A stretch of 64,000 nt of DNA from an uncultured Candidatus Saccharibacteria bacterium. Lineage in GTDB: Bacteria > Patescibacteriota > Saccharimonadia > CAILAD01 > JADZBC01. How positions within the stretch are numbered: position 1 is the stretch's first letter; each line of letters opens with the position of its first letter. The notes under the pieces are model-generated. The model was not told the DNA's origin. It did not search any database and was given only the letters and a program-made list of their open reading frames with translations. A program made the position numbers and the translations under genes. Below, in pieces: positions 20,238 to 42,216 of this stretch. The stretch is taken from contig CAYTBW010000005.1 of NCBI GenBank assembly GCA_964436255.1, positions 6,374-70,373 of the forward strand, in the 5' to 3' direction.

Positions 20238-20239
20238 CT

Positions 20240-21487: not shown

Positions 21488-21562
21488 CTATTGACTGGCA
21501 TGGTTAAATCAACTAATCTAAACATAAGAACTTTAAAGAATATTACAAAGGAGAATTTATAA

Positions 21563-21991: not shown

Positions 21992-22004
21992 GGCTAAGGT
22001 CTTA

Positions 22005-22050
22005 TTCTGCAATCTAAAAGCGCCCCTGTGGGCGCTTTTAGATTGCAGAA
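22005..22050 (+). terminator. Strong hairpin terminator after pilin gene
   Basis: TTCTGCAATCTAAAAGCGCCC-ctgt-GGGCGCTTTTAGATTGCAGAA, perfect 21-bp inverted repeat; the stem itself contains the 5' A4 and 3' T4 tracts, so it is symmetric/bidirectional. Confidence 0.7.
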
Positions 22051-22077
22051 ACATAAGAACTATACTAGAGTAGACAT

Positions 22078-23273: not shown

Positions 23274-23323
23274 CGAATTCTCGGTAGCATAAGTGGTATA
23301 ATATATCCAATTGGAAAGCATTT

Positions 23324-24040
23324 ATGTACAGGCTAAAAAAACATATTTTTAATCGTCAGCCCCAGGGCATTGGATTGGTAGAAGTGATACTCGTTATCGC
23401 CATTGCCGGCTTTATGATTACCTTGGCTATCAGCGGCATATCTAGTGGTGGTCGCTCTAGCTTCGACGACGGCATGAAGCAAGTACTCAATGACCTCCGT
23501 CAGGTTCAAAACGAAGCAGCCAGTGGACAGGCTATCGGTACCGTGCCTGGTGGGAGCGAATTATTTGGTAAGGGTGTTGGATTCGCTACTAAGGCCGACG
23601 AGGTGCCTGCTGGGTCCTTTGTCTTTCGGGGCTCGGGGCTAGATTCTGTAGGAATTGACTCTCGAAAATACTTTGCGCTGCGTACGACCGGCACTGACAC
23701 ACTTACTGAGCACAGCCCCGCTGCTAGCGCTTACCCAGGCTCTGTGGCCCTCAAGAGCATAGAGGTCGTGCCCAATGCTGGCGGTAACGCCGTAGCTTAT
23801 TCTAAGGGCACCCTGGTCTTTACCGGTGGGGGCGCGAATTCAGGCAACGTATTACCTTATTTCTTTCCCAATTATGGCGTGGCAGATCCGTCACCAGCTT
23901 CAGGAGTAGGCACTGTAGCGCCATATGCGCAGTCACAGGATAACAAAGTTACGTTAACTTATGTGGGCAGGAGTAACACTGGCTATACTGCAAAAATTGA
24001 GGTCAATACTGCAACGGGCACAATGGAGCTGAAGCAGTGA
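23324..24040 (+). CDS. Minor pilin / pseudopilin
   Basis: 238 aa; N-terminal QGIGLVEVILVIAIAGFMITL prepilin-like hydrophobic segment. Confidence 0.6.
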   Translation: MYRLKKHIFNRQPQGIGLVEVILVIAIAGFMITLAISGISSGGRSSFDDGMKQVLNDLRQVQNEAASGQAIGTVPGGSELFGKGVGFATKADEVPAGSFVFRGSGLDSVGIDSRKYFALRTTGTDTLTEHSPAASAYPGSVALKSIEVVPNAGGNAVAYSKGTLVFTGGGANSGNVLPYFFPNYGVADPSPASGVGTVAPYAQSQDNKVTLTYVGRSNTGYTAKIEVNTATGTMELKQ

Positions 24041-24528
24041 AGCTGAAGAATAGGCGGGGGGACACCTTGATCGAGGTTATATTTGCTTTGGCTATCTTGG
24101 CCACCATACTTACTGTGGTAACAAGCGGTGCAATTACAGCCTGGCGAACTTCGCGTGCTGCCGGTGAACGGGCGCAGGCTGCCGCTATGGCCACTGAGCA
24201 GGTGGAGGCACTAAGGTCTTATAAGCAAGCCTTGGAGTGGGGGGATTTTAGGGATACCATTCTTGGCCTCACCTCGCCTTATCATGCGGAAATTTCTGGC
24301 CTGAACGCCCTTCCCGATATGCCGTATTGGGACTTGAAGCCAGGTACTATAAACGGAGAGTTGCTCGATGCCCCACTCCCTGGTGCGATTGTAGGGCTAT
24401 CCCCAAAGAATCCGGTTACGAGCACGAGCACTTCGATCGATTTAGAAGTTACCGTTACCTGGAAGACGCTAGGTTCAAGCGTGACCAATAAGACAACGCA
24501 GCTTGTAACACTCTCGGAGAACAAGTAG
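24037..24528 (+). CDS. Minor pilin / pseudopilin
   Basis: 163 aa; RRGDTLIEVIFALAILATILTVV prepilin-like N-terminus; coupled. Confidence 0.6.
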   Translation: MKLKNRRGDTLIEVIFALAILATILTVVTSGAITAWRTSRAAGERAQAAAMATEQVEALRSYKQALEWGDFRDTILGLTSPYHAEISGLNALPDMPYWDLKPGTINGELLDAPLPGAIVGLSPKNPVTSTSTSIDLEVTVTWKTLGSSVTNKTTQLVTLSENK

Positions 24529-25091
24529 TGAAGATGCGCTGTAACGACAGAAAAGGCTTCACACTCATTGAGCTAATATTCGCCATGGCAGGCTTTAGTA
24601 TTATGCTAATTGTAGCCGTGTCTGGCTTTCTAAACGCGGTCGGGATTTATAATCAGGCTAATGTAAGTAGGGACAATCAACAGCAGGTCCGAAGGGCTAT
24701 GGAGCAGTTGGCGGGAGACATTCGTGTGGCCAAGGGCGCCACAACGAGCACTGCTGGATCCGGGACTTGGCTATGCTTAGAGGGCCTACCTAGCGGCAAC
24801 ACAGCTTACTATAGACTCAGCGGTAGCTCTGAACTGAAGCAACAAGATCTAGCACCGGGTGTTGATTGTGCCACGTTCGCTGCTGCGCCTACGGCAATCG
24901 CTGGCGATTCAGGAGTACTCCTAAACGTGAGCGCGTTTGAGCCTACCAAGCTACAACAATCCGATGCCGATGCCGGCTCCGTAAGGGTACTCATTGGGGT
25001 TCAGAGGGGGAGCGAGTCTTCGCCTCGTGCTAGGCAATTTAGCAATGCTTATGAGTTGCAGTCTACATACTTCCTGAGGGGAGGGCTGTAG
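24528..25091 (+). CDS. Minor pilin / pseudopilin
   Basis: 187 aa; RKGFTLIELIFAMAGFSIML prepilin leader; coupled. Confidence 0.65.
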   Translation: MKMRCNDRKGFTLIELIFAMAGFSIMLIVAVSGFLNAVGIYNQANVSRDNQQQVRRAMEQLAGDIRVAKGATTSTAGSGTWLCLEGLPSGNTAYYRLSGSSELKQQDLAPGVDCATFAAAPTAIAGDSGVLLNVSAFEPTKLQQSDADAGSVRVLIGVQRGSESSPRARQFSNAYELQSTYFLRGGL

Positions 25092-25092
25092 C

Positions 25093-26175
25093 ATGGCGTT
25101 AACAGCTCAGCGATTATCTGCTAGCATAAGGAGTATGAAAAACCGACTAAATACTCAAGCTGGCGGAGCTTCACTTTTAGTTACCGTAGTTCTAGCCCTT
25201 TTACTATTAGGCGTAGTTGGTGGACTTACTACGCTGTCCGTGCGTGAATTGCGCCAAGCAAGTAACACAGAGCAGTCTAATCGTGCGTTGAGCGCGGCGG
25301 AGTCATTTGTGGAACAGAAGGCAAACGAAATCGTGGTCGCTGGTAGCACAGCCTTTAACGATACGTGCAAAAACCAGAGCATCGGCGGTGCTGCGGACAA
25401 CCTCGCCATTACTTGCTACACAGTTACAAAAGGAAGGGGCGATAGCGCAGAGGCGGTACTAGATAGGGATAAGACATTCCGACTCCAGCTTGATGACGTC
25501 TCACCAGCACCCGCCAGTATGTCCATAGAGTGGCATGTAGAGTCCGACGGGAGTCTACCTGATAATTGGGCTGACTATTATGCAGGGGCCGGTTGGCCAA
25601 CCACTTTTGAAGGCGAGGGGGATGTCCCTGCTGCAATCGAGACTACCTTCGTAGCTTGGCAAAAGAGCAGCGGCAACATTGTCCCTAATGCTACTGATGG
25701 GGACTTTGGTCTGCCACTAAAGAAGTACTTAACGAAACCTGGTGGCAGCAATGGTACTACAATCCAGACTATTTGTGGTGAACCAGAAGAGGGTTATTAT
25801 TGTAGGACTTCCAGCCGCATTAATCTAGCCACTGCTACGGGCCAGCCTATTGGTAGCAATCTGGTCTTCAAAATCACTCCACGCTACAGTGGCGCCAAAG
25901 TACGGATCAAGTTTTTTGACAGTACTGGTAAGGTTATTACGATTCCGCTACCATACGCGACTATTGATGTTACTGCCCGGGCTAACAACCTATATAGACG
26001 GGTCGTAGCTACTAAAGCGCTTGATCCGACATTGGCCTATAGTCATTTAGATGGAAATGTCTTGTTCTCGGGCAAGAACATCTGCAAGACACTCATGGTT
26101 GGGAGTGACTACAATGGGGTGAATGGTGGTAATGGTACGAATGATGTAAATTGCGAGAACCCACCACCCGAATAA
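25093..26175 (+). CDS. PilX-like minor pilin / pilus tip-associated protein
   Basis: 360 aa; PilX-type N-terminal hydrophobic domain (GGASLLVTVVLALLLLGVVGGLTTLSVREL). Confidence 0.5.
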   Translation: MALTAQRLSASIRSMKNRLNTQAGGASLLVTVVLALLLLGVVGGLTTLSVRELRQASNTEQSNRALSAAESFVEQKANEIVVAGSTAFNDTCKNQSIGGAADNLAITCYTVTKGRGDSAEAVLDRDKTFRLQLDDVSPAPASMSIEWHVESDGSLPDNWADYYAGAGWPTTFEGEGDVPAAIETTFVAWQKSSGNIVPNATDGDFGLPLKKYLTKPGGSNGTTIQTICGEPEEGYYCRTSSRINLATATGQPIGSNLVFKITPRYSGAKVRIKFFDSTGKVITIPLPYATIDVTARANNLYRRVVATKALDPTLAYSHLDGNVLFSGKNICKTLMVGSDYNGVNGGNGTNDVNCENPPPE

Positions 26176-26178
26176 TAT

Positions 26179-27090
26179 TTAGCTATTATCCGAATGGAAC
26201 TTTTTATGCACGTCCTTCAGGTGCGGGTCGGTAATGTGGGTGTAAACTTGTGTTGTCGAGATGTTGGAATGTCCCAGCAGACCCTGCACGCTACGGATGT
26301 CAGCACCGTTCATAAGTAGGTCCGTGGCAAAGCTATGCCGCAGCGTGTGTGGCGTAACGTGCTTGGTTATGCCAGCTAGCTTGCTGTACTTTTCAACAAT
26401 ACGCTGAATGCTGCGAGTGGTAAGTCGGGTGTATTCGCCGCCTTCGAGCTCGCTTTTGCTACCACTAAAGTGGATAAAGAGAGGGTCGAAGTCGTCTTTT
26501 CGACCCTGCAGGTAATCTGCCAAGATTTGTGTTGCCGAATCGCTCAGGTACACCGGCCGATCTTTTTGGCCTTTACCACGCACACTGAACTCACCACGTT
26601 CTAAGTTAATGCTGTCGCGATTGAGCGCCACCAACTCGGATACACGCAGCCCGGTAGAGAACAGGAGGGCCAGGATGGCACGATCGCGCTTACCAGTTTG
26701 CGTATCAGGCTTCACGGCCTCCATGAGCCTGTGAACTTCGTCTTTGTCCAGGAAGCTTACTTGTGGCCGTTTCGCCACCGCAAGCTCTATCTTGTCAGGG
26801 CTGAGGCTGGTTATGTCACGCTTAACCAAGTAGCGTAGGAAGCTACGCATAGCAATTAGGTGGTAGTTTTGCGTAGTGCGGCTAATACTGCGCCCATCGT
26901 CGGTGACGTAGCGGTTTAGCCATTGGCGCCATTTGCTGATGGTGTCGAGGGTGATTTTATCTACCTTAATCTCACCTGTGAACTCGTCGAAGCGGTTTAG
27001 GTAATGCGAATAGTTCTCGATCGTCTTGAGGCTGCGCCCACGCTCGACCTCTAAGTATTCTAAAAAGTCACCCATGTAGTCGCTAAACAT
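26179..27090 (-). CDS. Tyrosine recombinase XerC/XerD family
   Basis: 303 aa; Xer-type motifs (R...HTLRHSFATDLLMNGADIRSVQGLLGHSNISTTQVYTH). Confidence 0.85.
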   Translation of the reverse strand: MFSDYMGDFLEYLEVERGRSLKTIENYSHYLNRFDEFTGEIKVDKITLDTISKWRQWLNRYVTDDGRSISRTTQNYHLIAMRSFLRYLVKRDITSLSPDKIELAVAKRPQVSFLDKDEVHRLMEAVKPDTQTGKRDRAILALLFSTGLRVSELVALNRDSINLERGEFSVRGKGQKDRPVYLSDSATQILADYLQGRKDDFDPLFIHFSGSKSELEGGEYTRLTTRSIQRIVEKYSKLAGITKHVTPHTLRHSFATDLLMNGADIRSVQGLLGHSNISTTQVYTHITDPHLKDVHKKFHSDNS

Positions 27091-29619: not shown

Positions 29620-29653
29620 TTGCGGGACCGGTCCAGTGCCGTAATCCCGCGCT

Positions 29654-29749
29654 TCAGGTGTCGATGGATCGAAGCAGGGCTCCGATGATCAGGCCGATGA
29701 ATCGACCAATCCGGTAGGCCAGGCGCTGTGAGCATGTCTCAGGCTTCAT
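29654..29749 (-). CDS. 31-aa hydrophobic peptide, 4th gene of coupled operon
   Basis: Not in ORF track; ATG overlaps 3' end of upstream gene, AGGAAG 9 nt upstream; MKPETCSQRLAYRIGRFIGLIIGALLRSIDT single TM. Confidence 0.4.
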   Translation of the reverse strand: MKPETCSQRLAYRIGRFIGLIIGALLRSIDT

Positions 29750-30002
29750 CACGCCAGCTTCCTGGCTCACCTAGCGGTGTTCTGCCCTCAGCCTGATCGC
29801 GTTTGGCCTTGTACTCCGCGGCACCATCGAGCCCTGCCTTGGTCAGGGCATCACCGAAGTCGTATCGGCTTGGTGGTACGCGTCCTTCACGAACGGCCCT
29901 GGTCTTTGCTCTGGCTCGCTCGATCTTGCCGGGAGCCGAGCAGATCAGATCCCACCACGCTTGCGTAAAGTTCGGGTCTTTGCCTGGGTATGGCTGTGTC
30001 AT
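29739..30002 (-). CDS. 87-aa basic soluble protein, 3rd gene of coupled operon
   Basis: ATGA stop/start overlap with upstream gene; MTQPYPGKDPNF...; true start inside longer track ORF 29739..30119. Confidence 0.5.
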   Translation of the reverse strand: MTQPYPGKDPNFTQAWWDLICSAPGKIERARAKTRAVREGRVPPSRYDFGDALTKAGLDGAAEYKAKRDQAEGRTPLGEPGSWRDEA

Positions 30003-30139
30003 CGGTGCCTCGTTGCACTTGGGTTCATGACCGCATCCCATCCGTGGACCAGGGCCCACCCGGCTGCCTTGACCGAGGTGATGCCGATGGCAGCACCCAG
30101 GCCAATTGCTCCGACGCACTTCAGTCCGTTGCGGATCAT
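29999..30139 (-). CDS. 46-aa single-TM peptide with GxxxG motifs, 2nd gene of coupled operon
   Basis: GAGGAGG RBS 5 nt upstream of ATG, ATGA overlap with upstream stop; MIRNGLKCVGAIGLGAAIGITSVKAAGWALV. Confidence 0.55.
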   Translation of the reverse strand: MIRNGLKCVGAIGLGAAIGITSVKAAGWALVHGWDAVMNPSATRHR

Positions 30140-30399
30140 CGGTTCCTCCTCAGCGGACGAGTGATGAGCCACGTCAGGCCGACCGGGGTGAGCACGAAGG
30201 CAGCCCCGAGCACCTGGTCCAGGAAGTGAGGCCCTCCCTGGTACTTGACCTCCTTTGGCCGTGCCGCTTCGGCGTGCTTGCGCTTGCTCGCCAGCGCCAA
30301 GCTGACTGCGCCCGCTGCGGCCGTGAGACCGAGCGAGACTGCCGTTCCAACTGCTTTCAACGTTCCCCCTAGTGGTTCTTGCTCGTGCGCGGATCGCAC
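30136..30399 (-). CDS. 87-aa two-TM membrane protein, 1st gene of coupled operon
   Basis: GTG start; two hydrophobic helices; preceded by AT-rich promoter-like region (TTGAGA-17-AATAAT) and upstream terminator. Confidence 0.5.
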   Translation of the reverse strand: MRSAHEQEPLGGTLKAVGTAVSLGLTAAAGAVSLALASKRKHAEAARPKEVKYQGGPHFLDQVLGAAFVLTPVGLTWLITRPLRRNR

Positions 30400-30530
30400 T
30401 ATGCATGGAGGGTATTATTAAATGAACACGCAAATATCTCAAGCTTAAGTATAAAGTAAACGAAAAAACGACCTAGATATTTCTAAGTCGTTCTGGGGTG
30501 GGCCCTGCGCCACACCCCGCCGCCTGCCGG

Positions 30531-30758
30531 CTAGTGGCCGCAAGCGATGACGCCGTTGGCGTACTGGATGCAGGTCACGACCGTGTCGTGGTGTTGGCTT
30601 CGCTTTACGGCCTCTTTGATGAGGGCCACCACGAGTGTGCCAAGCCAGATGCCGATGATCATGCCGCCGATGCGAGCGAGGCTGATCTCGCCAGACTCTC
30701 CAGCTCGGGTACGACTAGCAGGTGACTTCGCGCCTTGATAGTGCGAAAAAGCTTTCAT
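30531..30758 (-). CDS. 75-aa single-TM protein with Cys-containing C-terminal tail
   Basis: Strong RBS AAGGAGAGG 8 nt before ATG (MKAFSHYQGAK...); terminator hairpin AACGACCTAGA-tat-TTCTAAGTCGTT + T-run downstream (30462-30495). Confidence 0.6.
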   Translation of the reverse strand: MKAFSHYQGAKSPASRTRAGESGEISLARIGGMIIGIWLGTLVVALIKEAVKRSQHHDTVVTCIQYANGVIACGH

Positions 30759-30787
30759 CTCATACCTCTCCTTAGTGAGCGGGCGAA

Positions 30788-30973
30788 TTATCCGTTGATG
30801 AAGTTGATGACGCCGATCGTCACGAACACGGCGAAGGCCAGGAAGAAGATCGCCGTGTAGATGTTGCTGACCTCTACTTCTTCCGGGTGGCCCTTTTTGC
30901 TCTTTCTCCGGAACTCGTACATCCAACCGAACCGGGCCGGGTACTTATAGGTACCCCATTTTGCTTTGGCCAT
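30788..30973 (-). CDS. 61-aa membrane peptide (C-terminal TM)
   Basis: RBS GAGGAGG 5 nt before ATG; MAKAKWGTYKYPARFGWMYEF...IFFLAFAVFVTIGVINFING. Confidence 0.6.
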   Translation of the reverse strand: MAKAKWGTYKYPARFGWMYEFRRKSKKGHPEEVEVSNIYTAIFFLAFAVFVTIGVINFING

Positions 30974-31088
30974 TCAGGCCTCCTCAGTGTTTGGGGCGCC
31001 ATAGGCACCATGTGCAGGAACTTGTGTATTTATAGCATGAAATTAAGATGATTACAAGGGCTAGTATGTTATCTCTACGAGACTTTAA

Positions 31089-31136
31089 TTATCACCTAAA
31101 CTCACAATGCTGGATTATGAACTTGGGTAATGCCAG
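31089..31136. repeat. Junction repeat R3, copy 1 (TTATCACCTAAACTCACAATGCTGGATTATGAACTTGGGTAATGCCAG)
   Basis: ~90% identical to 33365..33413. Confidence 0.8.
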
Positions 31137-31181
31137 GTCTCGACTGGCAACGCTGCACATTGATGCGTGCAGGACATGGGT

Positions 31182-31619
31182 TCAGCTATCAGCCGAAGTC
31201 GATTCCTCGTCAGAGGTCTTTCCTCCGGTCTTCTTCATCTCCAGTAGGGTCCTAAAGATCATGTAGCCGACGAAGAGAATCGCGATGAAGATCATGCGGA
31301 GCAGTACGACTGCTTCGTGCATGTCCTTTACCTCGACCGGTGGTGGTGCCGGTGTCACCGGCTGCAGCCAAGAGGAGCTGCTCGCAGGCGGGCAGGGCTT
31401 CCACTGTTCGGTGCCGGGCACCGGCCCTCGTGGGTCACCTGGTAGCTCGGTCGGGACTAGGGCCTTGGGCACGCATTCTGACTTGGTTGGCGGCGCGGTC
31501 GTCGTGAAGGCCTGTGTCGTTGTTGTCGACGGGGAGCCTTCGCTTGACGCCGCAGAAGCGGGTGAGCCGATCGATGCTCCGAAGAGAATGATCAGCATTA
31601 GAATCAAGATACGCCTCAC
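31182..31619 (-). CDS. Secreted Pro/Thr-rich protein with C-terminal membrane anchor
   Basis: 145 aa; GTG start 9 nt after AAGGAGG RBS; signal peptide MRRILILMLIILFGASIGSPASA, TTTT/PPP-rich linker, C-terminal TM + charged tail. Confidence 0.65.
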   Translation of the reverse strand: MRRILILMLIILFGASIGSPASAASSEGSPSTTTTQAFTTTAPPTKSECVPKALVPTELPGDPRGPVPGTEQWKPCPPASSSSWLQPVTPAPPPVEVKDMHEAVVLLRMIFIAILFVGYMIFRTLLEMKKTGGKTSDEESTSADS

Positions 31620-31623
31620 GGCG

Positions 31624-31716
31624 CCTCCTTAGGGTAGGGATGGGACAAGCTTGAAGAAGCTAGCACCCGAACGTTAGAACTAGACTATAATAGCATAAGT
31701 GTAATAAAAAGTCAAT
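31624..31716 (-). promoter_or_regulatory. Promoter/RBS cassette P1, copy 1 (TTGACT-17-TATTAT ... CCTAAGGAGG)
   Basis: Minus-strand -35 at 31710-31715, -10 at 31687-31692, RBS 31624-31631; near-identical copy at 40899..40975. Confidence 0.65.
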
Positions 31717-31746
31717 GGTACATCACGTGATTGAGATTTGGAAATC
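31717..31746. repeat. Junction repeat R4, copy 1 (GGTACATCACGTGATTGAGATTTGGAAATC)
   Basis: Matches 33336..33365, where it directly abuts R3. Confidence 0.75.
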
Positions 31747-31861
31747 TTACGAGCTCAGTTCGGCTCGTTATACGAAATGAGCCCCACGTTGCCGTGGGGC
31801 TCGAGATCAGCTTGCCCTGCTTGGTGTATCGAGGATCTCATTCACGATACGCAGTTGTTGC

Positions 31862-32482
31862 TCAGGCCTGAGCCTGCTCCTTGTCCTCGACCTGCACCAC
31901 CACGAGGGGCGGGCAGGCCTTGTTCCACCAGGCACTGAAGCGGAACTGCCGCTTCTTGTAGAGGACCCCGATGATCCAGCAGGCTCCGATGATCACCGCT
32001 ATCCCGAGGAAGTACGGCCAGGCGGCCTGCAAGAAGTTGCCGATCGCAAGGAAGGCTTCCCACAGCATGCCGTTGGAAAGCCCGGCCACGATGACGCCAA
32101 CGCCGACGAAGGGGAGTACGTAGTACCAGGGGTTGTGCTTCCGGTACTCGCCCGTGCGCGGGCTGTAGCCCTTCGGAAGGAGCATCTTGTCCGTCGGGAT
32201 GTGTGACGGCAGCTTGTCTTTCTTCTTCGTTGTCTCGGGGGTAGGTGTGTAGCCGAGGAACCATGCGATTGGCACGACCAGGATCCAGAAGAGGAGCATG
32301 ATGATGCCAAGGATCACTGACCCGATGGCCGAAGCCGGAATCATGATCCAGTAGAACTTGCAGGCCTTCGCTCCTTCGATCTTCTCGGGATCCTCCCAGA
32401 AGAAGTTGACGAACCGGTAGCGCCTGCTGTCGGTGGGGATGGTCGAGAGCCGCGTCTTGAGCTTGCTGATGGGGTGGGGCAC
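31862..32482 (-). CDS. Four-TM membrane protein
   Basis: 206 aa; GTG start with GAAAGGCGG RBS; transcribed from minus arm of bidirectional promoter P2a; stem-loop GAGCCCCACGTTGCCGTGGGGCTC downstream. Confidence 0.6.
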   Translation of the reverse strand: MPHPISKLKTRLSTIPTDSRRYRFVNFFWEDPEKIEGAKACKFYWIMIPASAIGSVILGIIMLLFWILVVPIAWFLGYTPTPETTKKKDKLPSHIPTDKMLLPKGYSPRTGEYRKHNPWYYVLPFVGVGVIVAGLSNGMLWEAFLAIGNFLQAAWPYFLGIAVIIGACWIIGVLYKKRQFRFSAWWNKACPPLVVVQVEDKEQAQA

Positions 32483-32536
32483 GATGCCGCCTTTCTTGGG
32501 TGCGTAGCTACCACGGGTTGTGGCGGCATGAACAAC

Positions 32537-32585
32537 GCATATAATACCACGAAACCTTTACAAAAGCAATAGATTATGGTAATAT
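32537..32585. promoter_or_regulatory. Bidirectional promoter cassette P2, copy a
   Basis: Plus TTTACA(32557)-17-TAATAT(32580); minus TTGCTT (comp. 32564-69)-17-TATTAT (comp. 32541-46); drives 31862..32482(-) and 32636..33067(+). Confidence 0.65.
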
Positions 32586-32635
32586 GTACCCCTGCTCTCA
32601 ACCGAAGCAGTTGAACATCACAGGAAGGGGCTACA

Positions 32636-33067
32636 ATGCCCGACGTGGAAGTGGATTATCCCGAAGGCATGCTCGACGACATCACCAACCGTCTCCGCTT
32701 CAAGCGGGACGTCAAGGGGGTGGTCGCGCGTGGCATGGACTGCATCAAGCCGCCCGAGGAAGGTGAGCCGGAGGTCATGACGCGGTACGCCGCCGATCCC
32801 GACGGCAACGTCGGCCTGCTGCTCCGTCCGTACAAGCCCGAGGACGGCAGCGACATCTGGACCCCCATCCAGGTCCGGATCAGCACCTACGCATGGCCCG
32901 ATCGCATGGCCAACCTCGATGACCGCATCTGGGACATCACCCAGGACGTGCGGCGCCTCCTCAACGTCGAGGTCGAGGAGTTCCTGGAGCGCATGTTCCC
33001 CGGCAAGACCAAGCTGGTGGCCGTTCGCTTCGACCCCAAGTTCCCCGGAGCCTGGGCCGAGGCCTGA
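32636..33067 (+). CDS. Acidic soluble protein, unknown function
   Basis: 143 aa; RBS AGGAAGGGG; high-GC codon usage; followed by hairpin + intrinsic terminator module. Confidence 0.6.
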   Translation: MPDVEVDYPEGMLDDITNRLRFKRDVKGVVARGMDCIKPPEEGEPEVMTRYAADPDGNVGLLLRPYKPEDGSDIWTPIQVRISTYAWPDRMANLDDRIWDITQDVRRLLNVEVEEFLERMFPGKTKLVAVRFDPKFPGAWAEA

Positions 33068-33089
33068 TGCTTCAAGGCCAACAAGAGGC

Positions 33090-33166
33090 GGGGTGTCTCT
33101 GGAGCCAAGAGGCTCACACCCCAAGCGCGGTTTGCACAGAAATGTGCGAGCCGCATTTTCATTTGT
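33090..33166 (+). terminator. Terminator module T1, copy a (bulged hairpin + 12-bp stem/GAAA loop/U-tract)
   Basis: GGGGTGT..GAGCC-aaga-GGCTC..ACACCCC then GCGGTTTGCACA-gaaa-TGTGCGAGCCGC-ATTTTCATTTGT. Confidence 0.7.
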
Positions 33167-33298
33167 ACCCATTAATCCCAGGAGGGTAGGTTGCTAGCGC
33201 AACCTCCGTGGCGTGCTTGGTCAAAGCGCAAGCGAACTTGCTTTTGACGCTGCGCGCGCCACTCCACCGAACCTGCGGTTCTCATCCGCCCTAAATAC

Positions 33299-33341
33299 AA
33301 AAGCCTGCTGACTACTAATGTAATCATCAGACTTTTGGTAC
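33299..33341. terminator. Bidirectional hairpin T2, copy a, plus 7-nt copy of tRNA-Arg 3' end
   Basis: AAAAGCCTGCTGA-ctactaatgtaa-TCATCAGACTTTTGG-TACA; duplicate of tRNA-Arg 3' flank at 34426..34469. Confidence 0.65.
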
Positions 33342-33413
33342 ACCACGTAATTGAGATTTGGAACTTATCACCTAAACTCACAATACTTTGATTATGAACT
33401 TAGGTAATGCCAG
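33336..33413. repeat. Junction repeats R4+R3, copy 2 (contiguous)
   Basis: GGTACACCACGTAATTGAGATTTGGAAC|TTATCACCTAAACTCACAATACTTTGATTATGAACTTAGGTAATGCCAG. Confidence 0.8.
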
Positions 33414-33438
33414 TTTTGTGGGTCTGGCAACCATTTGC

Positions 33439-33750
33439 TCAGGCGTGCGAGCGCCTGGTTGGCTTTACTTTGTCAGCGACGCCGTCTGGTCCGTAGAAGA
33501 CCAGCTTACGAAGCCGGGGATGGAAGGTGAAGTTCTCGGCCTCCAGGAACTGCTCGAGAAGTTCGCGGGACATGCCCCGGACGACCAGCTCCTCCGTTCC
33601 TCCGTACATCAGCGCCCACGTCACCTGCATGAACTCAGGTGGCCTGAAGTCGACCACGAGCTTCCAGGGGTAGGTGTCGTCATCGGGCTCGTTGAACTGC
33701 CCGGTGAGGCTGATGAGCTTGATGCCTTCAATTGCTGGGTACTCGGGCAT
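33439..33750 (-). CDS. 103-aa soluble protein, unknown function
   Basis: Strong RBS AGGAGGG 6 nt before ATG; transcribed from minus arm of P2b; preferred over overlapping plus ORF 33388..33843. Confidence 0.6.
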   Translation of the reverse strand: MPEYPAIEGIKLISLTGQFNEPDDDTYPWKLVVDFRPPEFMQVTWALMYGGTEELVVRGMSRELLEQFLEAENFTFHPRLRKLVFYGPDGVADKVKPTRRSHA

Positions 33751-33803
33751 GGCAGCCCTCCTTGTTCAGGACGGGCTAGCCGTCATTACCAACATGAGAA
33801 CCC

Positions 33804-33852
33804 GCATATAATACCACTAAACCTTTACAAATGCAATACTTAGTGGTATGAT
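33804..33852. promoter_or_regulatory. Bidirectional promoter cassette P2, copy b
   Basis: Plus TTTACA(33824)-17-TATGAT(33847); minus TTGCAT-17-TATTAT; ~90% identical to copy a. Confidence 0.65.
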
Positions 33853-33876
33853 GTGGCATCACCCAGTGGTGAAAGA

Positions 33877-34302
33877 ATGACTTCCAGAAGCGATGAAAGG
33901 GTTCTTGAGATGGTTTCAGAAGCAGCTACCTTCCTTACCTCCTCGACGGAGGTGGGCCGGATCTACGGGCAGGGGATGGACGACGAGTGCATGTTCGACA
34001 CCCTCCCTCTGTTCGGGGGTGATCACGTGATCAACGTCCGGACGCGTGGGGCTGAGGCCCAGAGCATCATGATGCCGAGGCGTACCACGCTCCTGGTGCA
34101 GCTCTTCGAGAGGCCGGACACTCTCTGGCTGGCCTCAGTAGTGCGGATCAATGGCGAATGGATGATCATGTACTCGCCGGTCTCGCTCCCAGAAGTCCTG
34201 GACGGAAGGTCTGAGGCACCCGAACTTGCCGTCGTCACAGAGCGACAGCAGGCCGAGGGGGTCACGGACGAGATGGAGCATCGACTCCGACGAGATACGT
34301 GA
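33877..34302 (+). CDS. Acidic soluble protein, unknown function
   Basis: 141 aa from ATG 33877 (track GTG start 33853 lies inside the -10 element); followed by T1 copy b. Confidence 0.55.
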   Translation: MTSRSDERVLEMVSEAATFLTSSTEVGRIYGQGMDDECMFDTLPLFGGDHVINVRTRGAEAQSIMMPRRTTLLVQLFERPDTLWLASVVRINGEWMIMYSPVSLPEVLDGRSEAPELAVVTERQQAEGVTDEMEHRLRRDT

Positions 34303-34309
34303 GTGCGGC

Positions 34310-34386
34310 GGGGTGTCTCTGGAGCCACGAGGCTCACACCCCAATCGCGGTTTGCATAGAAATGTGCAGGCCGCATTTTCATTTGT
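34310..34386 (+). terminator. Terminator module T1, copy b
   Basis: Same structure as copy a; stem substitutions remain paired via G-U/compensatory changes (GCGGTTTGCATA-gaaa-TGTGCAGGCCGC). Confidence 0.7.
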
Positions 34387-34425
34387 GCTCAAAATATACC
34401 TACGGCTCTCATCCGCCCTAAATAC

Positions 34426-34465
34426 AAAAGCCTGCTGACTACTAATGTAATCATCAGGCTTTTGG
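34426..34465. terminator. Bidirectional hairpin T2, copy b (native tRNA-Arg terminator)
   Basis: AAAAGCCTGCTGA..TCATCAGGCTTTTGG immediately 3' of tRNA-Arg on minus strand. Confidence 0.7.
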
Positions 34466-34538
34466 TACCCTGGGAGGGAATCGAACCCCCGACGCTCTCC
34501 TTAGGACGGAGACGCTCTATCCACTGAGCTACCAGGGC
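34463..34538 (-). tRNA. tRNA-Arg (anticodon CCT)
   Basis: 76-nt cloverleaf read by hand: acceptor GCCCTGG/CCAGGGT, D-arm GCTC/GAGC, anticodon stem TCTCC/GGAGA with loop GTCCTAA, T-arm GGGGG-TTCGATT-CCCTC, encoded CCA. Confidence 0.8.
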
Positions 34539-34630
34539 GTATGCTTAACTCTGCTCACTCTACAACGCCAAGGCCCTCAGTGTAAGGGCGTTCGACGCTT
34601 GTTTTCAATCCTCGGCCTACGGCCTGGGCA

Positions 34631-34653
34631 CTGAGCTACCAGGTCGTGTGATG
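34631..34653. repeat. Partial duplicate of tRNA-Arg 5' half (CACTGAGCTACCAGGTCGTGTGATGC)
   Basis: 22/24-nt match to 34522..34544, ~110 bp outside the tRNA; att/pseudo-tRNA remnant. Confidence 0.6.
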
Positions 34654-34733
34654 CTCAGTTATAAAACTAGCAGTTTCGTGACTAATCTAACAGCGTGCAG
34701 AAGTTATTATACACTAGTTATTGTCATGGGGGA

Positions 34734-34762
34734 TTGACAGAAAAGCATAAGTGTTGTATTTT
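34734..34762 (+). promoter_or_regulatory. Sigma70-type promoter (TTGACA-17-TATTTT) for Zn-ribbon gene
   Basis: Consensus -35, 17-bp spacer containing the recurring AGCATAAGTGT motif, TAGGAGG RBS downstream. Confidence 0.55.
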
Positions 34763-34794
34763 TAGGGCGTCCGCAACCTACTTAGGAGGTAGAT

Positions 34795-35484
34795 ATGGAC
34801 TGCACTAATTGCGGTGCCGCGATCCCTCCTAAGGAGGAGGAATTTGCTGGTACCTGTTATGGCTGTGGGGAATCTCTTGGCTTCCAGCCGTTCGTGAGCG
34901 AGACAGATGAAGCCCTCGATCGCCTAGAACAGCGGGTGAGGGAGGCCCGATTCCACGAGTTGGCTGGAGCCGCAGAGGTGGCCGACGACATCGAGCTTGG
35001 TGATCCTGAAGAGGGCATCGACTTCGAGGCGAATCGTCGTTCGCTGGCTGAGACTCACGAGTTTTTCGCCCCCGTACTCCCGATCTTTGGGACCGAGGAA
35101 GATGCTCGTGCCTCTGCCAGCAGGCACCCAACAGCTCGAGACGGCCAAACGCCGACAAGGGCTGTCGCCTACGAATATTATCGGGTTACCGGTAATATAA
35201 GGGGCGCGCCGACGTCGTTCTGGGTCGAGGTCTCGAGTAACGCTAAGGGTGACACCTCGGCTCGTAGCAAGTACTGCCAGTACGTCTCCGAGCAAGGGTG
35301 GAAGCTGTTCGACCGCGAAGGCCGCTTTGAGTGGCCTGAGGACCCCGCGAAGCGACACCCGGCTAAGAGGAGGTCCCTGGATGTATCAGCTTCAACCCAC
35401 GATGAACCAGACGAGTACCTGTATCGGTTGACGAGTAATTCGCCCTTGGTGTTGGGCCGTCGGGAACGGACACAAGGCACATGA
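34795..35484 (+). CDS. Zn-ribbon (CxxC...CxxC) acidic protein, unknown function
   Basis: 229 aa; RBS TAGGAGG 6 nt upstream; N-terminal CTNCG...CYGCG; GC-rich codons; hairpin terminator 35494..35532. Confidence 0.65.
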   Translation: MDCTNCGAAIPPKEEEFAGTCYGCGESLGFQPFVSETDEALDRLEQRVREARFHELAGAAEVADDIELGDPEEGIDFEANRRSLAETHEFFAPVLPIFGTEEDARASASRHPTARDGQTPTRAVAYEYYRVTGNIRGAPTSFWVEVSSNAKGDTSARSKYCQYVSEQGWKLFDREGRFEWPEDPAKRHPAKRRSLDVSASTHDEPDEYLYRLTSNSPLVLGRRERTQGT

Positions 35485-35493
35485 AGGTGCCTG

Positions 35494-35532
35494 CCCGGTT
35501 TTCTCAAAGACGAGAAGACCGGGTTCCCTTTT
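35494..35532 (+). terminator. Rho-independent terminator
   Basis: CCCGGTTTTCT-caaagacg-AGAAGACCGGG-TTCCCTTTT. Confidence 0.6.
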
Positions 35533-35580
35533 ACACCGAGTATTTATATCTGGCAGAATTGCAGCATAAGCTGTTACAAT

Positions 35581-37452: not shown

Positions 37453-37707
37453 CTACTCGTTGCGCTTGTGCTGCCCGTGGGCCCGTGCGCGCTGGATGCA
37501 GTAACGCATCTCCCACTGGATCGGCCACAGCCAGTCACGACGCTTGCGCGGCTTCTGGATGTAGGGCTGATCCCAAGGTCCCAGGAGCCAGTAGATCACC
37601 CACATGACAGCAATCGCCGCCAAGATGAGGACCAACAGGCTTGTGGTGAGCGAGAGGTCCGCGTACCAATTTCCGATACCCTCGAGGGTATCTGTGAAAA
37701 CGCTCAA
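37453..37707 (-). CDS. 84-aa membrane protein
   Basis: TTG start, one TM helix (LLVLILAAIAVMWVIYWLL), basic C-terminus; weak RBS. Confidence 0.4.
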   Translation of the reverse strand: MSVFTDTLEGIGNWYADLSLTTSLLVLILAAIAVMWVIYWLLGPWDQPYIQKPRKRRDWLWPIQWEMRYCIQRARAHGQHKRNE

Positions 37708-40189: not shown

Positions 40190-40756
40190 TCATCGCTCGT
40201 CGAGCGGGTAGTTCCTCTCGTCGAGCGGGTCGTAGCGGCTCTCATCGAAGTCGTACCGGTCGAGGTCGGCCCGGTAGGCCGTCTCCGACCGGTAGGCATC
40301 GAAGGTGTCTTCGATGATCCCACGGATGGCCGCGATGGCCTCGTCCTCGCTGTCACACTTGATGACTTCGCGGTGGTTGCAGTACTGGTTGACCGTCCCC
40401 TTGACGCCGACGAGCAGCGCCTCGTTGTGGCCCAGCACATGCTTGTCGACACCGATGCCGCGGTCCCAGACGTCCATGAAGAGGCGGACGTTGATGGACG
40501 CTGGGTCGAGCGAGTAGCTCGACCTGAAGCGATCGGTGCAGCCACTTGGGCGCCAGTAGGCCTCACGGATGGCGTCAACCTTGCCCCAGGGGATGCGGTC
40601 GAACTCATCCGGCCACAGTTCCTGGGTGTAGATGAAGGTCGACCCGTTCGCTCGAGTGCCCTCCTGGTCGGCCCGGACGGAGGTTGCCGTCTCGAGCTTC
40701 TCGCGGATGACTCGCTCGAAGAGTGCGTAGGTGTTCGGGTCGATGTTGGTCTGCAT
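40190..40756 (-). CDS. 188-aa protein with acidic C-terminal repeats, unknown function
   Basis: ATG at 40756 with AAGGAGCAACACC RBS; overlapping track ORFs 40084..40950(-) and 40187..40972(+) judged spurious GC-rich frames. Confidence 0.6.
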   Translation of the reverse strand: MQTNIDPNTYALFERVIREKLETATSVRADQEGTRANGSTFIYTQELWPDEFDRIPWGKVDAIREAYWRPSGCTDRFRSSYSLDPASINVRLFMDVWDRGIGVDKHVLGHNEALLVGVKGTVNQYCNHREVIKCDSEDEAIAAIRGIIEDTFDAYRSETAYRADLDRYDFDESRYDPLDERNYPLDER

Positions 40757-40853
40757 GGTGTTGCTCCTTGCGAAGTAGGTACGGTTGCCCGTACCAGTTC
40801 GAAGGAACACACCCTGGTGTTCAGGTACGGGAGAGAAGGGTGGGGCCGTAGCC
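40757..40853 (-). promoter_or_regulatory. Leader with mutually exclusive hairpins (possible attenuator)
   Basis: CCCGTACC (1) / GGTACGGG (2) / CCGTACC (3): 1:2 and 2:3 pairings are alternative; between 14-aa leader ORF and main gene. Confidence 0.3.
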
Positions 40854-41184: not shown

Positions 41185-41261
41185 TGGCGGGCCCGACCGG
41201 ATTCGAACCGGCGATCTCCTCCGTGACAGGGAGGCATGTTAGGCCTCTACACCACGGGCCC
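41185..41261 (-). tRNA. tRNA-Asp (anticodon GTC)
   Basis: 77 nt; acceptor GGGCCCG/CGGGCCC, anticodon stem CCTCC/GGAGG with loop CTGTCAC, T-loop GGTTCGAATCC, encoded CCA. Confidence 0.8.
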
Positions 41262-41843: not shown

Positions 41844-41916
41844 CGGGTATGGTTTAGTGGTAGAATGCGACCTTCCCAAGGTTGAGATACGGGTTCGATT
41901 CCCGTTACCCGCTCCA
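41844..41916 (+). tRNA. tRNA-Gly (anticodon CCC)
   Basis: 73 nt; acceptor GCGGGTA/TACCCGC, anticodon loop TTCCCAA, T-loop GGTTCGATTCC, CCA encoded. Confidence 0.8.
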
Positions 41917-42140
41917 TGACTGAACGACTGGCTGTAGCCAGGTGCACAGTCATATATGTACCAACCTTGGTAACTTAACAGGTTTGAGTTCCGTCAAAAT
42001 CAGACATCTTGCCTTGACATCGTGATAACGCGCGGTAAACCGAAGTGCGTAGCACTGTTTGTCAAGCGAAGAGGAGAATTTATGCCAAGGAGTGGAGCTC
42101 ATTGTCTGTTATGAGCGACTAAAAGGCATAAAATCGACGA

Positions 42141-42216
42141 GCCACCTTAGCTCAGTTGGTAGAGCGACGCTTTCGTAAAGCGTAGGTCGCCGGTTCAATC
42201 CCGGCAGGTGGCTCCA
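42141..42216 (+). tRNA. tRNA-Thr (anticodon CGT)
   Basis: 76 nt; GCCACCT acceptor, D-loop AGCTCAGTTGGTAGAGC, anticodon loop TTCGTAA, T-loop GGTTCAATCC, discriminator U, CCA. Confidence 0.8.

Follow-up and report, generated by a model that had tools for sequence, protein, structure and literature searches.

The CIMEs of streptococcal ICEs carry att-like repeats at their ends and no recombination genes; site-specific accretion explains their tandem placement at a tRNA or gene 3′ end. In the minimal mobile elements of Neisseria, unrelated genes fill the same slot between conserved flanks through natural transformation and homologous recombination, without dedicated mobility genes. Integron cassette arrays consist of tandem small ORFs, mostly unknown, that turn over at a high rate, with a structured element after each ORF. 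The tycheposons of Prochlorococcus also form arrays, in which elements have a partial tRNA as the attachment motif at their flanks and the remnants lack integrases (bioRxiv 10.1101/2020.12.28.424599).

Here we describe a locus at positions 29625-35540 of a 64,000-nucleotide stretch of DNA (hereafter the window) from the metagenome-assembled genome of an uncultured Candidatus Saccharibacteria bacterium. On balance, this is probably a flexible genomic island at tRNA-Arg(CCT), in which tRNA-proximal modules accreted in tandem and ORFs were swapped. As with Prochlorococcus islands and tycheposons, the position next to a tRNA is conserved in a streamlined genome, a single site would have undergone repeated integration with older elements displaced inward, and small sets of cargo genes vary among close relatives (bioRxiv 10.1101/2020.12.28.424599). 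However, tycheposons span several kb and include tyrosine recombinases as well as replication modules, whereas no recombinase is present here in any state seen, the units are merely 1.1-1.6 kb, the tRNA-derived repeat is merely 6 nt, and each unit combines exchangeable ORFs with a promoter/terminator chassis that is conserved.

The modules share with CIMEs the flanking repeats, the lack of recombination genes and the tandem placement at a tRNA 3′ end, but CIMEs are defined by a known ICE with an acting integrase, and the modules have no identified partner. Like Neisseria minimal mobile elements and replacement-type flexible islands, the slots hold unrelated genes between conserved flanks; the Neisseria flanks are conserved core genes, whereas here they are short noncoding promoter/terminator modules within a repeated unit. 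The likeness to integron arrays extends to the structured element after each ORF (D1, with two hairpins). Unlike integrons, the locus has no IntI, attI or Pc, its ORFs are divergent with strong promoters of their own, and D1 shows sequence conservation and looks like a terminator, whereas in attC only the structure is conserved.

Composition and products of the island

The original prediction held that coding DNA in this region is richer in GC than the core genes while the intergenic promoters stay AT-rich, and that at least 12 small ORFs are present. Composition confirms this description: GC is 0.570 inside the interval and 0.495 across the remaining window, and the intergenic DNA of the island (1,856 bp) has a GC of 0.48. 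A 5.9-kb scan of the window (mean 0.503, sd 0.030) gives its top value, 0.5696, at a start of 29601, and the interval is essentially the GC maximum among same-sized stretches of the window. The surplus is placed at synonymous sites, at third codon positions. Core genes have a GC3 of 0.537 ± 0.046 with a maximum of 0.62 (n=31), and island genes range over 0.59-0.90, with 0.90 for g9, 0.88 for g8, 0.81 for g10, 0.80 for g5, 0.70-0.74 for g1, g2, g4, g6, g7 and g11, 0.63 for g12 and 0.59 for g3. Values near the core level also occur inside the island, in g3 (0.54-0.59) and a 105-aa gene (0.55-0.61).

All 12 ORFs display frame-specific GC3 periodicity, and most island ORFs were also predicted by independent gene callers in relatives. 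The genes are considered real because their dN/dS values are 0.18-0.53 and because RBS, promoters and terminators are present. Sigma-70-like sites number 12 in the island versus 2.9 ± 1.9 expected, and are located upstream of the g1-g4 operon, g7, g8, g9, g11 and g12. An assembly artefact is excluded because overlapping contigs from at least five other samples are 100% identical.

As predicted, no integrase was found, nor was any Pfam, PHROGs, NCBIfam or PADLOC family (g2 and g4 were included in some scans only); the best PHROGs, Pfam and PADLOC matches have E values of 0.002-0.05 over short or low-complexity stretches. The expectation that most products are TM or secreted holds for 7 of the 12, which carry a TM-like segment (g1, g2, g4, g5, g6, g7 and g8), and fails for g3 and g9-g12, which are soluble. 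The label of envelope proteins was therefore half right, given that g9 has a predicted cytoplasmic-type tautomerase fold and that TM segments are absent from g3 and g10-g12.

Organisation of the locus and its counterparts in relatives

The island would be limited by ndk on one side and by bPH-domain and PpiC genes on the other. Its ndk side carries the following features.

29654-30399, minus strand: four-gene operon g1-g4 with RBS (g1, 87 aa, 2 TM; g2, 46 aa, TM; g3, 87 aa, soluble; g4, 31 aa, TM-like)
30414-30442, minus strand: operon promoter (TTGAGA, 17 nt spacer, AATAAT)
30531-30973, minus strand: g5 (61 aa, C-terminal TM, GC3 0.80) and g6 (75 aa, TM, GC3 0.71), then a terminator at 30465-30494
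31089-31136: repeat D7/D6, downstream of g7, 96% identical to a second copy
33365-33413: second D7/D6 copy, downstream of g10
31182-31619, minus strand: g7, 145 aa, with its promoter at 31687-31715

ATGA overlaps, which had been proposed to couple all four operon genes, join g1/g2 and g2/g3; g3 and g4 instead overlap by 11 nt (stop at 29739-29741, ATG at 29747-29749). The sister species L015 has homologues of g1 (70% aa identity) and g3 (63%), with dN/dS of 0.18-0.36, and a g4-like ORF is found in the relative L094. The operon is the older, shared portion of the island. Both g5 and g6 are missing from L015, and L094 has a g5-like gene (58% aa). The g7 product, with an N-terminal signal-like segment, a Pro/Thr/Ser-rich region and a C-terminal TM, is 41% identical to its L015 homologue, and the g7 promoter region is 79% identical in nucleotides to L015 up to 31716.

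Two tandem modules make up a 2,747-bp insertion between this promoter region and the tRNA. The features from there to the right-hand end of the island are as follows.

31716-31743: distal boundary of module 1, TGGTAC (31716-31721) and D5 with palindrome ATCACGTGAT
31744-31861, minus strand: element X, conserved g8 3′ UTR and terminator (hairpin 31779-31802)
31862-32482, minus strand: g8, 206-aa multi-pass membrane protein
32536-32587: D3, bidirectional promoter block driving g8 (minus) and g9 (plus)
32636-33067, plus strand: g9, 143 aa, predicted tautomerase-superfamily fold, conserved N-terminal Met-Pro
33087-33171, plus strand: D1, a conserved 3′ element of g9 with two hairpins (96% identity to L094 and L100)
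33271-33341: D2, copy of the hairpin after tRNA-Arg, 96% identical to 34398-34468
33336-33413: D5′ then D7′/D6′, distal end of module 2
33439-33750, minus strand: g10, 103-aa soluble ORFan
33803-33854: D3′, second bidirectional promoter, 85% identical to D3, driving g10 and g11
33877-34302, plus strand: g11, 141-aa soluble ORFan, GC3 0.73-0.74
34307-34468, plus strand: D1′ (34307-34391) and D2′ (34398-34468), terminators of g11 and the tRNA, abutting the tRNA 3′ end
34463-34538, minus strand: intact tRNA-Arg(CCT), Rfam 60 bits, 100% identical in L015 and L094
34541-34705: 165-bp segment missing from L015, which holds at 34629-34650 a degenerate copy of tRNA nucleotides 1-17
34795-35484, plus strand: g12, 229 aa, N-terminal CxxC...CxxC motif, promoter at 34734-34762

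Each module consists of two divergent ORFs, one conserved bidirectional promoter and conserved terminators, and D1, D2, D3 and D5 are each present in two copies in identical order. Each module is bounded by TGGTAC, which corresponds to the final 6 nt of the tRNA (3′ terminal GTACCA) and lies at 31716, 33336 and 34463; D2 ends in this sequence at 33336-33341, the junction of modules 1 and 2. The weight of this direct repeat lies in its position alone, because it is just 6 bp and the plus strand of the window contains 31 copies of it. The intrinsic terminator in D1 is formed by the second hairpin and ATTTTCATTT, and D1 has no match in Rfam. Family scans matched g8 to no known family; its dN/dS is 0.31-0.43 against L094 and L100. 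No recombinase was found in or adjoining the modules, and no excised or circular module form was seen. The tRNA had been placed at the edge of the region, and in fact lies within it, with g12 on its 5′ side. The g12 product is 82% identical to that of L094 and just 28% to that of L015, despite L015/L094 flanks that are 92.6% identical; g12 is the variable gene at the right end of the island.

Synteny of the locus is kept in all relatives found, and the content differs. In L015 and L094 the flanks are 91-93% identical, and the island content (2.5 kb and 4.7 kb) is mostly unrelated. We therefore regard the locus as a flexible genomic island with tRNA-Arg(CCT) at its centre, because relatives with ~92% identical flanks carry unrelated DNA; the predicted foreign or flexible DNA at a tRNA, equipped with its own AT-rich promoters, is in this respect supported.

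The relatives form a series of zero, one or two modules at the tRNA end. The L015 site is empty: the g7 promoter runs straight into TGGTAC and then CCTGGG, at the tRNA 3′ end, and homology to this site stops exactly at the 31716-31743 boundary. The window differs in that 2,747 bp separate the TGGTAC after this promoter from the tRNA. L094-L099 have one module, in which the tRNA and D1 are followed by a 260-aa gene and g8 diverging from D3, then X and D5 with TGGTAC. In L100-L102 the tRNA and D1 are followed by a g9 pseudogene and g8 diverging from D3, then X and D5, and in L107 D1 adjoins yet another gene. L013 has the order g7, D5, D7D6, then g10 and g9 diverging from D3, then D1; this is a single short metagenomic contig, and a chimera formed at the 28-bp and 52-bp repeats could explain it.

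Between species the chassis elements are 96% (D1), 95% (X, in L094 and L100), 96% (D5) and 97% (D3, over 31-36 nt in L094 and L100) identical, whereas the ORFs within them are 74-85% identical in nucleotides (g8) or swapped for unrelated ones, and core synonymous sites are near saturation. Regulatory constraint, instead of a role as recombination anchor, could also account for chassis conservation. The g10 slot holds an unrelated 115/124-aa ORF in L004/L005 and a third sequence in L006, with flanks 95-99% identical among strains, and g11 is 97-98% identical in protein in L004 and L006. The g10 slot is replaceable. When the window is compared with L094, g8 and g12 reach ~40% of the synonymous difference expected at saturation, and the neighbouring bPH and PpiC genes reach 71-81%. 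Island genes thus have lower synonymous divergence than adjacent core genes, reflecting recent exchange.

A predicted tautomerase-fold protein

The product of g9 is predicted to be a new tautomerase-fold protein. Like fused 4-OT, cis-CaaD, MSAD, CHMI and MIF, it would place two beta-alpha-beta units in a single chain of ~130-145 aa, and, as in the tautomerase superfamily, at least 90% of g9-family members have Pro as the residue after the initiator Met. Unlike known tautomerases, g9 has no sequence-level match to Pfam tautomerase families or PDB chains, and structural alignments give merely 6-17% identity. The family is also tiny: a full HMMER scan of 1.84 billion representatives with a g9 profile returned 25 proteins, none of them named. 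Readable contexts of g9 relatives (L103, L105, L108, L109 and L110) are all contigs of 0.51-0.54 GC, and the neighbours in L105 are PpiC and bPH-domain genes, as in the window.

Origin of the modules and their cargo

One alternative, which we consider unlikely, is that vertically inherited, fast-evolving, lineage-specific genes arose in situ in tandem-duplicated modules, with GC3 raised by GC-biased gene conversion or mRNA selection. The conserved synteny and the frequent recombination evident at the locus fit such an origin, as does the native-like amino-acid composition of the most GC3-rich island proteins (GARP 0.26-0.31 and FYMINK 0.23-0.44; core 0.26 and 0.26). Moreover, distant g9 relatives (27-41% aa identity) have GC3 values of 0.81-0.87 in four other moderate-GC contigs, and high GC3 thus seems to be maintained and not ameliorating. 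However, g3 and the 105-aa gene have native GC3, and therefore a regional effect misfits, while the ordinary GC3 of ribosomal-protein genes in the window (0.41-0.58) speaks against expression-linked codon bias. Divergence alone would not produce unrelated ORFs in one slot or the presence or absence of whole modules, which require gain and loss, and the two modules are too different for recent duplication (D3 85%, D1 92%).

A GC3 of 0.8-0.9 is typical of genomes with ~65-70% GC, and the original prediction named an actinobacterial host as a possible donor, with the proviso, which the Saccharibacteria lineage bears out, that this is an episymbiont genome. GC3-rich ORFs would then have come from a high-GC host, its phages or its plasmids, and acquired local promoters. 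Cultivated Saccharibacteria grow on Actinobacteria and import DNA (PMC10633639), the ORFs are set between AT-rich resident promoter and terminator modules, and g1-g3 are GARP-rich (0.40-0.44). We nevertheless judge this origin improbable, and no island protein searched had a homologue in Actinomycetota or phages. Searches of 5.8 billion proteins with g8 and g9 yielded no actinobacterial homologue and merely 3-6 close relatives, all on Saccharibacteria-type contigs; the g9 profile likewise found none among the 1.84 billion representatives. A tblastn search of 50,697 phage records with five island proteins gave no match, the g9 fold had none in BFVD, and in comparisons of island DNA with phages and plasmids the tRNA was the sole matching part. 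In addition, g5, g8, g9 and g10 have GC1, GC2 and amino-acid composition that resemble the resident core, unlike proteins of high-GC genomes, and the g9 relatives sit on moderate-GC contigs.

It is also very doubtful that the island is a decayed prophage or ICE whose mobility genes were deleted and whose small membrane proteins come from genes of the moron, holin or superinfection-exclusion type: the tRNA 3′ site with its short repeat at junctions, the partial tRNA copy (34629-34650), the abundance of small TM proteins under promoters of their own and the deviating composition would suit it, but PHROGs, Pfam and PADLOC gave no significant phage, conjugation or defence match, four species-level relatives show neither a larger element nor an integrase remnant at this position, and the units are small, complete and alike in organisation, unlike random deletion debris.

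The original prediction is thus partly supported, and we favour a flexible island built by accretion, in which two related modules would have been added at the extreme tRNA 3′ end to give the proximal 2.7 kb. Tandem duplication followed by ORF replacement would yield the same picture. Each module would be a fixed noncoding chassis (boundary D5, bidirectional promoter D3, and terminator elements to either side, namely X or D7/D6 and, opposite them, D1/D2) with two divergent ORF slots. Entry may have relied on site-specific recombination supplied in trans or, alternatively, on homology-facilitated recombination after natural transformation; natural competence is known in Saccharibacteria (PMC10633639). 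Homologous recombination acting across the conserved chassis could then exchange the ORFs. The GC3-rich ORFs appear to derive from a pool of genes whose composition differs from that of the core genome; this pool is not detectably actinobacterial. The island would thereby hold a shifting collection of small genes that are restricted to the lineage and transcribed separately. Strong local promoters would drive them, and they probably serve envelope, interaction or defence-type accessory roles, alongside one putative tautomerase-like enzyme.

Composition and gene content of the island

The original prediction described a GC-rich block set among lower-GC core genes and fitted with AT-rich intergenic promoters, and this description is borne out by the composition of the DNA. 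The GC content is 0.570 in 29625-35540 versus 0.495 in the remaining window, and the richest 5.9-kb stretch is essentially the island itself (maximum 0.5696 from position 29601; mean 0.503 and standard deviation 0.030 for all such windows). This excess is concentrated in the third codon positions of the island genes (GC3). The 31 core genes of the window have a GC3 of 0.537 ± 0.046 with a maximum of 0.62, and the island thus deviates from the core in both GC and GC3, as is typical of genomic islands. Intergenic DNA within the island (1,856 bp) has a GC content of 0.48 and contains 12 sigma-70-like promoter matches, against an expectation of 2.9 ± 1.9. These matches are sited ahead of genes, a consensus promoter serving each ORF or pair of ORFs, and hairpins resembling intrinsic terminators sit behind the genes. 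The block is not an assembly artefact, since overlapping contigs assembled from several other samples match the island at 100% identity wherever they cover it.

Island genes, with GC3 and predicted product
g1, g2, g4 and g6: GC3 0.70-0.74; small single- or double-pass membrane proteins
g3: GC3 0.59; soluble ORFan
g5: GC3 0.80; small single- or double-pass membrane protein
g7: GC3 0.70-0.74; signal peptide, Pro-Thr-rich region and TM anchor
g8: GC3 0.88; multi-pass membrane protein
g9: GC3 0.90; candidate tautomerase-fold protein
g10: GC3 0.81; soluble ORFan
g11: GC3 0.70-0.74; soluble ORFan
g12: GC3 0.63; CxxC-motif protein

Twelve ORFs are present, where at least 12 had been predicted. Their products had been described as mostly membrane-spanning or secreted, which is true of the seven with a TM-like hydrophobic segment (g1, g2, g4, g5, g6, g7 and g8); the other five are soluble. 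The proposed four-gene operon requires correction at g3/g4, where the overlap is 11 nt instead of ATGA. Likewise, the tRNA-Arg that was thought to form one edge does exist, but it sits inside the interval. The dN/dS ratios of island genes (0.18-0.53 versus 0.02-0.08 in the core) indicate that the ORFs are real genes under purifying selection, albeit weaker than that acting on the core.

The scanned products yielded nothing above noise in Pfam, PHROGs, NCBIfam or PADLOC, and no integrase was found among them, as predicted. Matches of g7 to New_glue, PD-T4-6 and Sie-like families were discarded because they fall on signal-like or Pro/Thr-rich stretches. These proteins may plausibly act in the envelope, in contact with the host or in defence.

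A more specific proposal can be made for g9. Its modelled structure comprises two fused beta-alpha-beta units, the arrangement of the tautomerase superfamily. All 18 aligned family members share M1, and at least 90% of them have P2; one distant member begins with MA and one with ML in place of MP. After removal of Met, the proline would become Pro1, the position of the tautomerase catalytic base. Neither Pfam (searched with all 18 members) nor PDB sequences provided a match to the family. An initial model built from five sequences (pLDDT 65) gave meaningless Foldseek matches and was replaced by one built from 18 sequences.

Tandem modules at the tRNA-Arg end

An empty site is found in L015, a Candidatus Saccharibacteria MAG, in which the g7 promoter directly joins TGGTAC/CCTGGG, the 3′ end of tRNA-Arg. 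The sequence TGGTAC is the reverse complement of GTACCA, which comprises the final bases of the acceptor stem together with the discriminator and CCA. The g7 promoter of the window likewise leads into TGGTAC, at 31716, but the tRNA end at 34463 is reached only after another 2,747 bp. This insertion consists of two tandem units, the second of which adjoins the tRNA, and the island therefore has the location at the 3′ end of a tRNA that is expected of genomic islands.

Features of the tRNA-proximal region, in order (primes mark module 2 copies of noncoding elements)
31716-33335, unit 1: D5; X (g8 3′ UTR and terminator); g8 (minus strand); bidirectional promoter D3; g9 (plus strand); D1; a 99-nt middle segment; D2
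33336-34462, unit 2: D5′; D7′/D6′; g10 (minus strand); D3′; g11 (plus strand); D1′; D2′
34463-34538, minus strand: tRNA-Arg(CCT)
34541-34705: 165-bp segment upstream of tRNA-Arg

All three junctions in the window bear TGGTAC, as does the distal junction of L094; L100 has a degenerate version, TGGAC. Since the repeat is only 6 nt long and occurs 31 times on the plus strand of the window, its significance as a putative att-type repeat rests solely on its exact position at independently defined junctions. D5 was considered as a possible decayed tRNA 3′ half; its similarity beyond TGGTAC is only scattered. The 165-bp segment is missing from L015, and at 34629-34650 it repeats the initial 17 nt of the tRNA in degenerate form (CCTGGTAGCTCAGTG); the segment may be left over from an earlier rearrangement here.

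Two hairpins make up D1, the second being an intrinsic terminator, and D2 is a copy of the hairpin situated after the tRNA. Rfam searches, at the gathering threshold and at E ≤ 1, returned only the tRNA, and D1 does not correspond to any known RNA family. Six near-identical copies exhibit no two-sided covariation and four one-sided changes that preserve pairing. Accordingly, we describe D1 as a predicted terminator with an upstream hairpin and make no wider structured-RNA claim. The D1 hairpin pattern has no occurrence in viral contigs and a single occurrence in a JGI metagenome scan (contig L107, where D1 lies beside yet another gene), and neither scan revealed a plasmid-like or circular copy.

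The order ndk, tRNA-Arg, g12, bPH-domain gene and PpiC gene is syntenic in every relative recovered, and the contents between them differ. This variable region spans approximately 29.75-35.5 kb of the window, close to the predicted boundaries. Relatives differ in the content of the block: there are no modules in L015, one in L094-L102 and two in the window and L004-L006, and unrelated ORFs occupy the same slot (the ORF position between noncoding parts). L015 and L094 exemplify this presence/absence polymorphism. Their flanks are 91-93% identical in nucleotide sequence and their PpiC proteins 98% identical, yet the intervening 2.5 kb and 4.7 kb, respectively, are mostly unalignable. In L015 the distance from ndk to the tRNA is just 2.3 kb, which accommodates a NUDIX gene, homologues of g1-g3, a 105-aa gene and a g7 homologue. 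The NUDIX-like gene (140 aa, L015 10496-10918) directly follows ndk, has a native GC3 of 0.52 and is missing from the window. Even the near-identical strains L004, L005 and L006, with flanks 95-99% identical and the same layout as the window, differ from it in the g10 slot, where a 115/124-aa ORF with no relation to g10, or else a third sequence, is found.

More distant lineages reveal a conserved noncoding chassis (boundary, promoter and terminators) around exchanged ORFs. Comparison of the window with the lineages of L094 and L100 gives an identity of 96% for D1, 95% for X, 96% for D5 and 97% for D3, versus a nucleotide identity of 85% (L094) and 74% (L100) for g8 itself. The g8 homologues of L094-L099 (75% amino acid identity) and L100-L102 (68%) have differing neighbours, and the g8 partner is a 143-aa tautomerase-like gene, an unrelated 260-aa gene or a pseudogene. 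This pseudogene (L100 1634-2060) is a tRNA-adjacent g9 homologue split into ORFs of 43 and 94 aa, with a GC3 still at 0.68-0.85. On contig L013 the order is g7-D5-D7D6-g10 <- D3 -> g9-D1, and this contig, to judge from its arrangement, recombines the two units of the window, the breakpoints lying in D5 and D3.

Synonymous divergence points to exchange between lineages as well. Flanking core genes are near saturation in these comparisons (pS 0.72-0.78). Because GC3 bias lowers the saturation level (0.59 versus 1.0), pS was compared with a level corrected for this bias. For window versus L094, the g8 pS is 0.25 against a saturated expectation of 0.585 ± 0.054 (~40%; z = -6.2), and the g12 synonymous difference is 0.38 against 0.96 (again ~40%). 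The adjacent bPH and PpiC genes reach 71-81% of their expectation. The low value for g8 is not a mere artefact of GC3 bias, as evident by its position far under even the lowered saturation level. Exchange of the island between lineages is therefore more recent than that of the core around it.

Origin of the GC3-rich ORFs

Half of the original interpretation stands: the locus is a flexible integrative island, devoid of an integrase, in an episymbiont. The episymbiont assignment agrees with the nearest matches of Ndk, a Patescibacteria MAG (99%) and L015 (92%). The other half, transfer of envelope genes from host to symbiont, is not supported: homology searches and amino acid composition both speak against it. 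When g8 and g9 were compared with 5.8 billion proteins, only 3-6 close relatives were recovered, all on Saccharibacteria-type contigs. Among all 1.84 billion cluster representatives, a g9 profile picked out 25 proteins, every one an unnamed metagenomic singleton, and a profile search in the larger protein set produced no actinobacterial additions. No closest homologue belongs to Actinomycetota or to their phages or plasmids.

A phage source fares no better. Island DNA matches phages and plasmids at the tRNA only, tblastn of five island proteins in 50,697 phage records gave no match, and a viral fold search (BFVD) gave no match for g9. Phage structural, lysis, replication or regulatory genes were not recognised; PHROGs gave nothing below E 0.002, and that match covers a 34-residue stretch. 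Thus, neither an actinobacterial nor a phage source is detectable for the GC3-rich ORFs.

Composition provides a second line of evidence. For g5, g8, g9 and g10, the genes of highest GC3, GC2 (0.38-0.42) and the amino acid fractions GARP (0.26-0.31) and FYMINK (0.23-0.44) are near core values, and GC1 is core-like too; a GARP-rich make-up is confined to g1-g3. The signature of a high-GC donor is therefore lacking in these four proteins, whose core-like make-up is not what long residence in a 65-70% GC genome would give. Moreover, distant g9 relatives (27-41% identity) reside on five other contigs of moderate GC (0.51-0.54), and in four of the five their GC3 is 0.81-0.87 versus 0.45-0.78 for neighbouring genes. 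High GC3 is hence persistent in the family, rather than the mark of a fresh import undergoing amelioration.

Other causes were weighed. A purely regional process, for example GC-biased conversion at a hotspot of recombination, is hard to reconcile with the native GC3 of g3 and the 105-aa gene within the island. Expression-linked codon bias also fits poorly, given the ordinary GC3 of ribosomal-protein genes. Two of the contigs carrying distant g9 relatives (L110 1-10402 and L105 1-8428) are themselves GC3 mosaics, in which genes at 0.45-0.55 lie beside genes at 0.74-0.87, and accessory genes of uneven GC3 may be a more general feature of these genomes. Within the window, GC3-rich ORFans are also found outside the island, and the phenomenon seems to recur at a second tRNA, tRNA-Asp, where the larger ORFan lies on the 3′ side.

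GC3-rich ORFans outside the island
37453-37707, minus strand: 84-aa TM protein, GC3 0.81
40190-40810, minus strand: 206-aa ORFan, GC3 0.86, local GC peak 0.64
41185-41261, minus strand: tRNA-Asp

Proposed assembly of the locus and its significance

The analysis shows a flexible island at tRNA-Arg: modules lacking a recombinase lie in tandem at the tRNA end, their chassis is conserved, ORFs have been replaced and there has been exchange between lineages. We propose that modules join the tRNA end through a recombinase acting in trans or, alternatively, through homology-facilitated recombination after DNA uptake. Homologous recombination across D3, D1, X and D5 would next exchange the ORFs. Natural competence, with recombination of the DNA taken up, is known for Saccharibacteria (PMC10633639). 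The two units could instead derive from tandem duplication followed by ORF replacement; however, at 85% identity for D3 and 92% for D1 they have diverged too far for recent duplication to be likely.

Only two candidates for a trans-acting recombinase exist in the window, and neither is tied to the island by evidence.

Recombinase and pilus genes
5705-7502, minus strand: 531-aa large serine recombinase (gene 5705-7300; N-terminus MNRAALYARVSTAKQE), then a 69-aa HTH-like ORF
14797-26175: type IV pilus cluster (pilM-like, ATPases, platform protein, several pilin-like genes, prepilin peptidase)
26179-27090: XerC/D-like tyrosine recombinase gene

The XerC/D-like gene is the recombinase nearest to the island, is located outside it and is conserved in all relatives; together with the pilus cluster it lies directly upstream of mnmG-ndk and the island. 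The serine recombinase is at the edge of a low-GC stretch (7000-12000, GC 0.43-0.45 versus 0.50 for the window), and its region may be a separate integrated element. Xer-exploiting (dif/IMEX) integration was considered since D5 is 28 nt long and an Xer-like gene is nearby, and was rejected because GC skew is positive throughout the locus, which is therefore not the terminus. In addition, D5 shows no resemblance to the dif consensus. Another small insertion beside a tRNA is apparent at 41916-42141, where tRNA-Gly(CCC) and tRNA-Thr(CGT) are 224 bp apart (about the same in L004/L005) versus only 1 nt in L015 (18869-18871).

CIME-type accretion and the minimal mobile elements of Neisseria resemble the present modules. 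Likeness to integrons is superficial: there is no IntI integrase, attI, Pc or promoterless attC-ended cassette, promoters belong to each ORF or pair, and D1 is conserved in sequence and terminator-like. The nearest analogue is the tRNA-anchored additive island of the Prochlorococcus tycheposon arrays, in which each new integration displaces the earlier ones inward, and repeats of part of the tRNA as well as degenerate remnants stay behind (10.1101/2020.12.28.424599). Unlike these arrays, the modules described here lack a recombinase in every state observed, have a repeat of 6 nt, are very small and share a repeated promoter/terminator chassis.

A bolder view, which we consider improbable, is that the locus would be a Saccharibacteria-specific platform for gene capture and expression. 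Two-gene modules without a recombinase would dock in tandem at the CCA end of tRNA-Arg(CCT), and transformation-competent cells would use the chassis as homology arms to swap in ORFs from an unsampled, compositionally distinct high-GC3 pool, possibly the unsampled mobile elements of the host community. If so, a GC3 of ~0.85 maintained across ~30% identity in the tautomerase-like family, on several contigs of moderate GC, would mark a real GC-keeping process, either continual re-import or a gene-specific GC-biasing mechanism.

The modular chassis-plus-slot layout and the persistent GC3 anomaly are noteworthy, although they do not demonstrate a new principle. A GC3 excess in an episymbiont of high-GC hosts is, by itself, no proof of host-to-symbiont transfer. 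A minor but genuine puzzle in the maintenance of accessory-gene composition is that a new and small tautomerase-fold family retains very high GC3 in several genomes of moderate GC. Saccharibacteria and other Patescibacteria have tiny genomes whose gene gain and loss are little understood, and this locus offers an example at base-pair resolution: a tRNA-anchored hotspot that gains whole two-gene modules in tandem and swaps individual ORFs lying between conserved joints of noncoding DNA. That such exchange proceeds without a resident mobility gene fits a lifestyle of DNA uptake.
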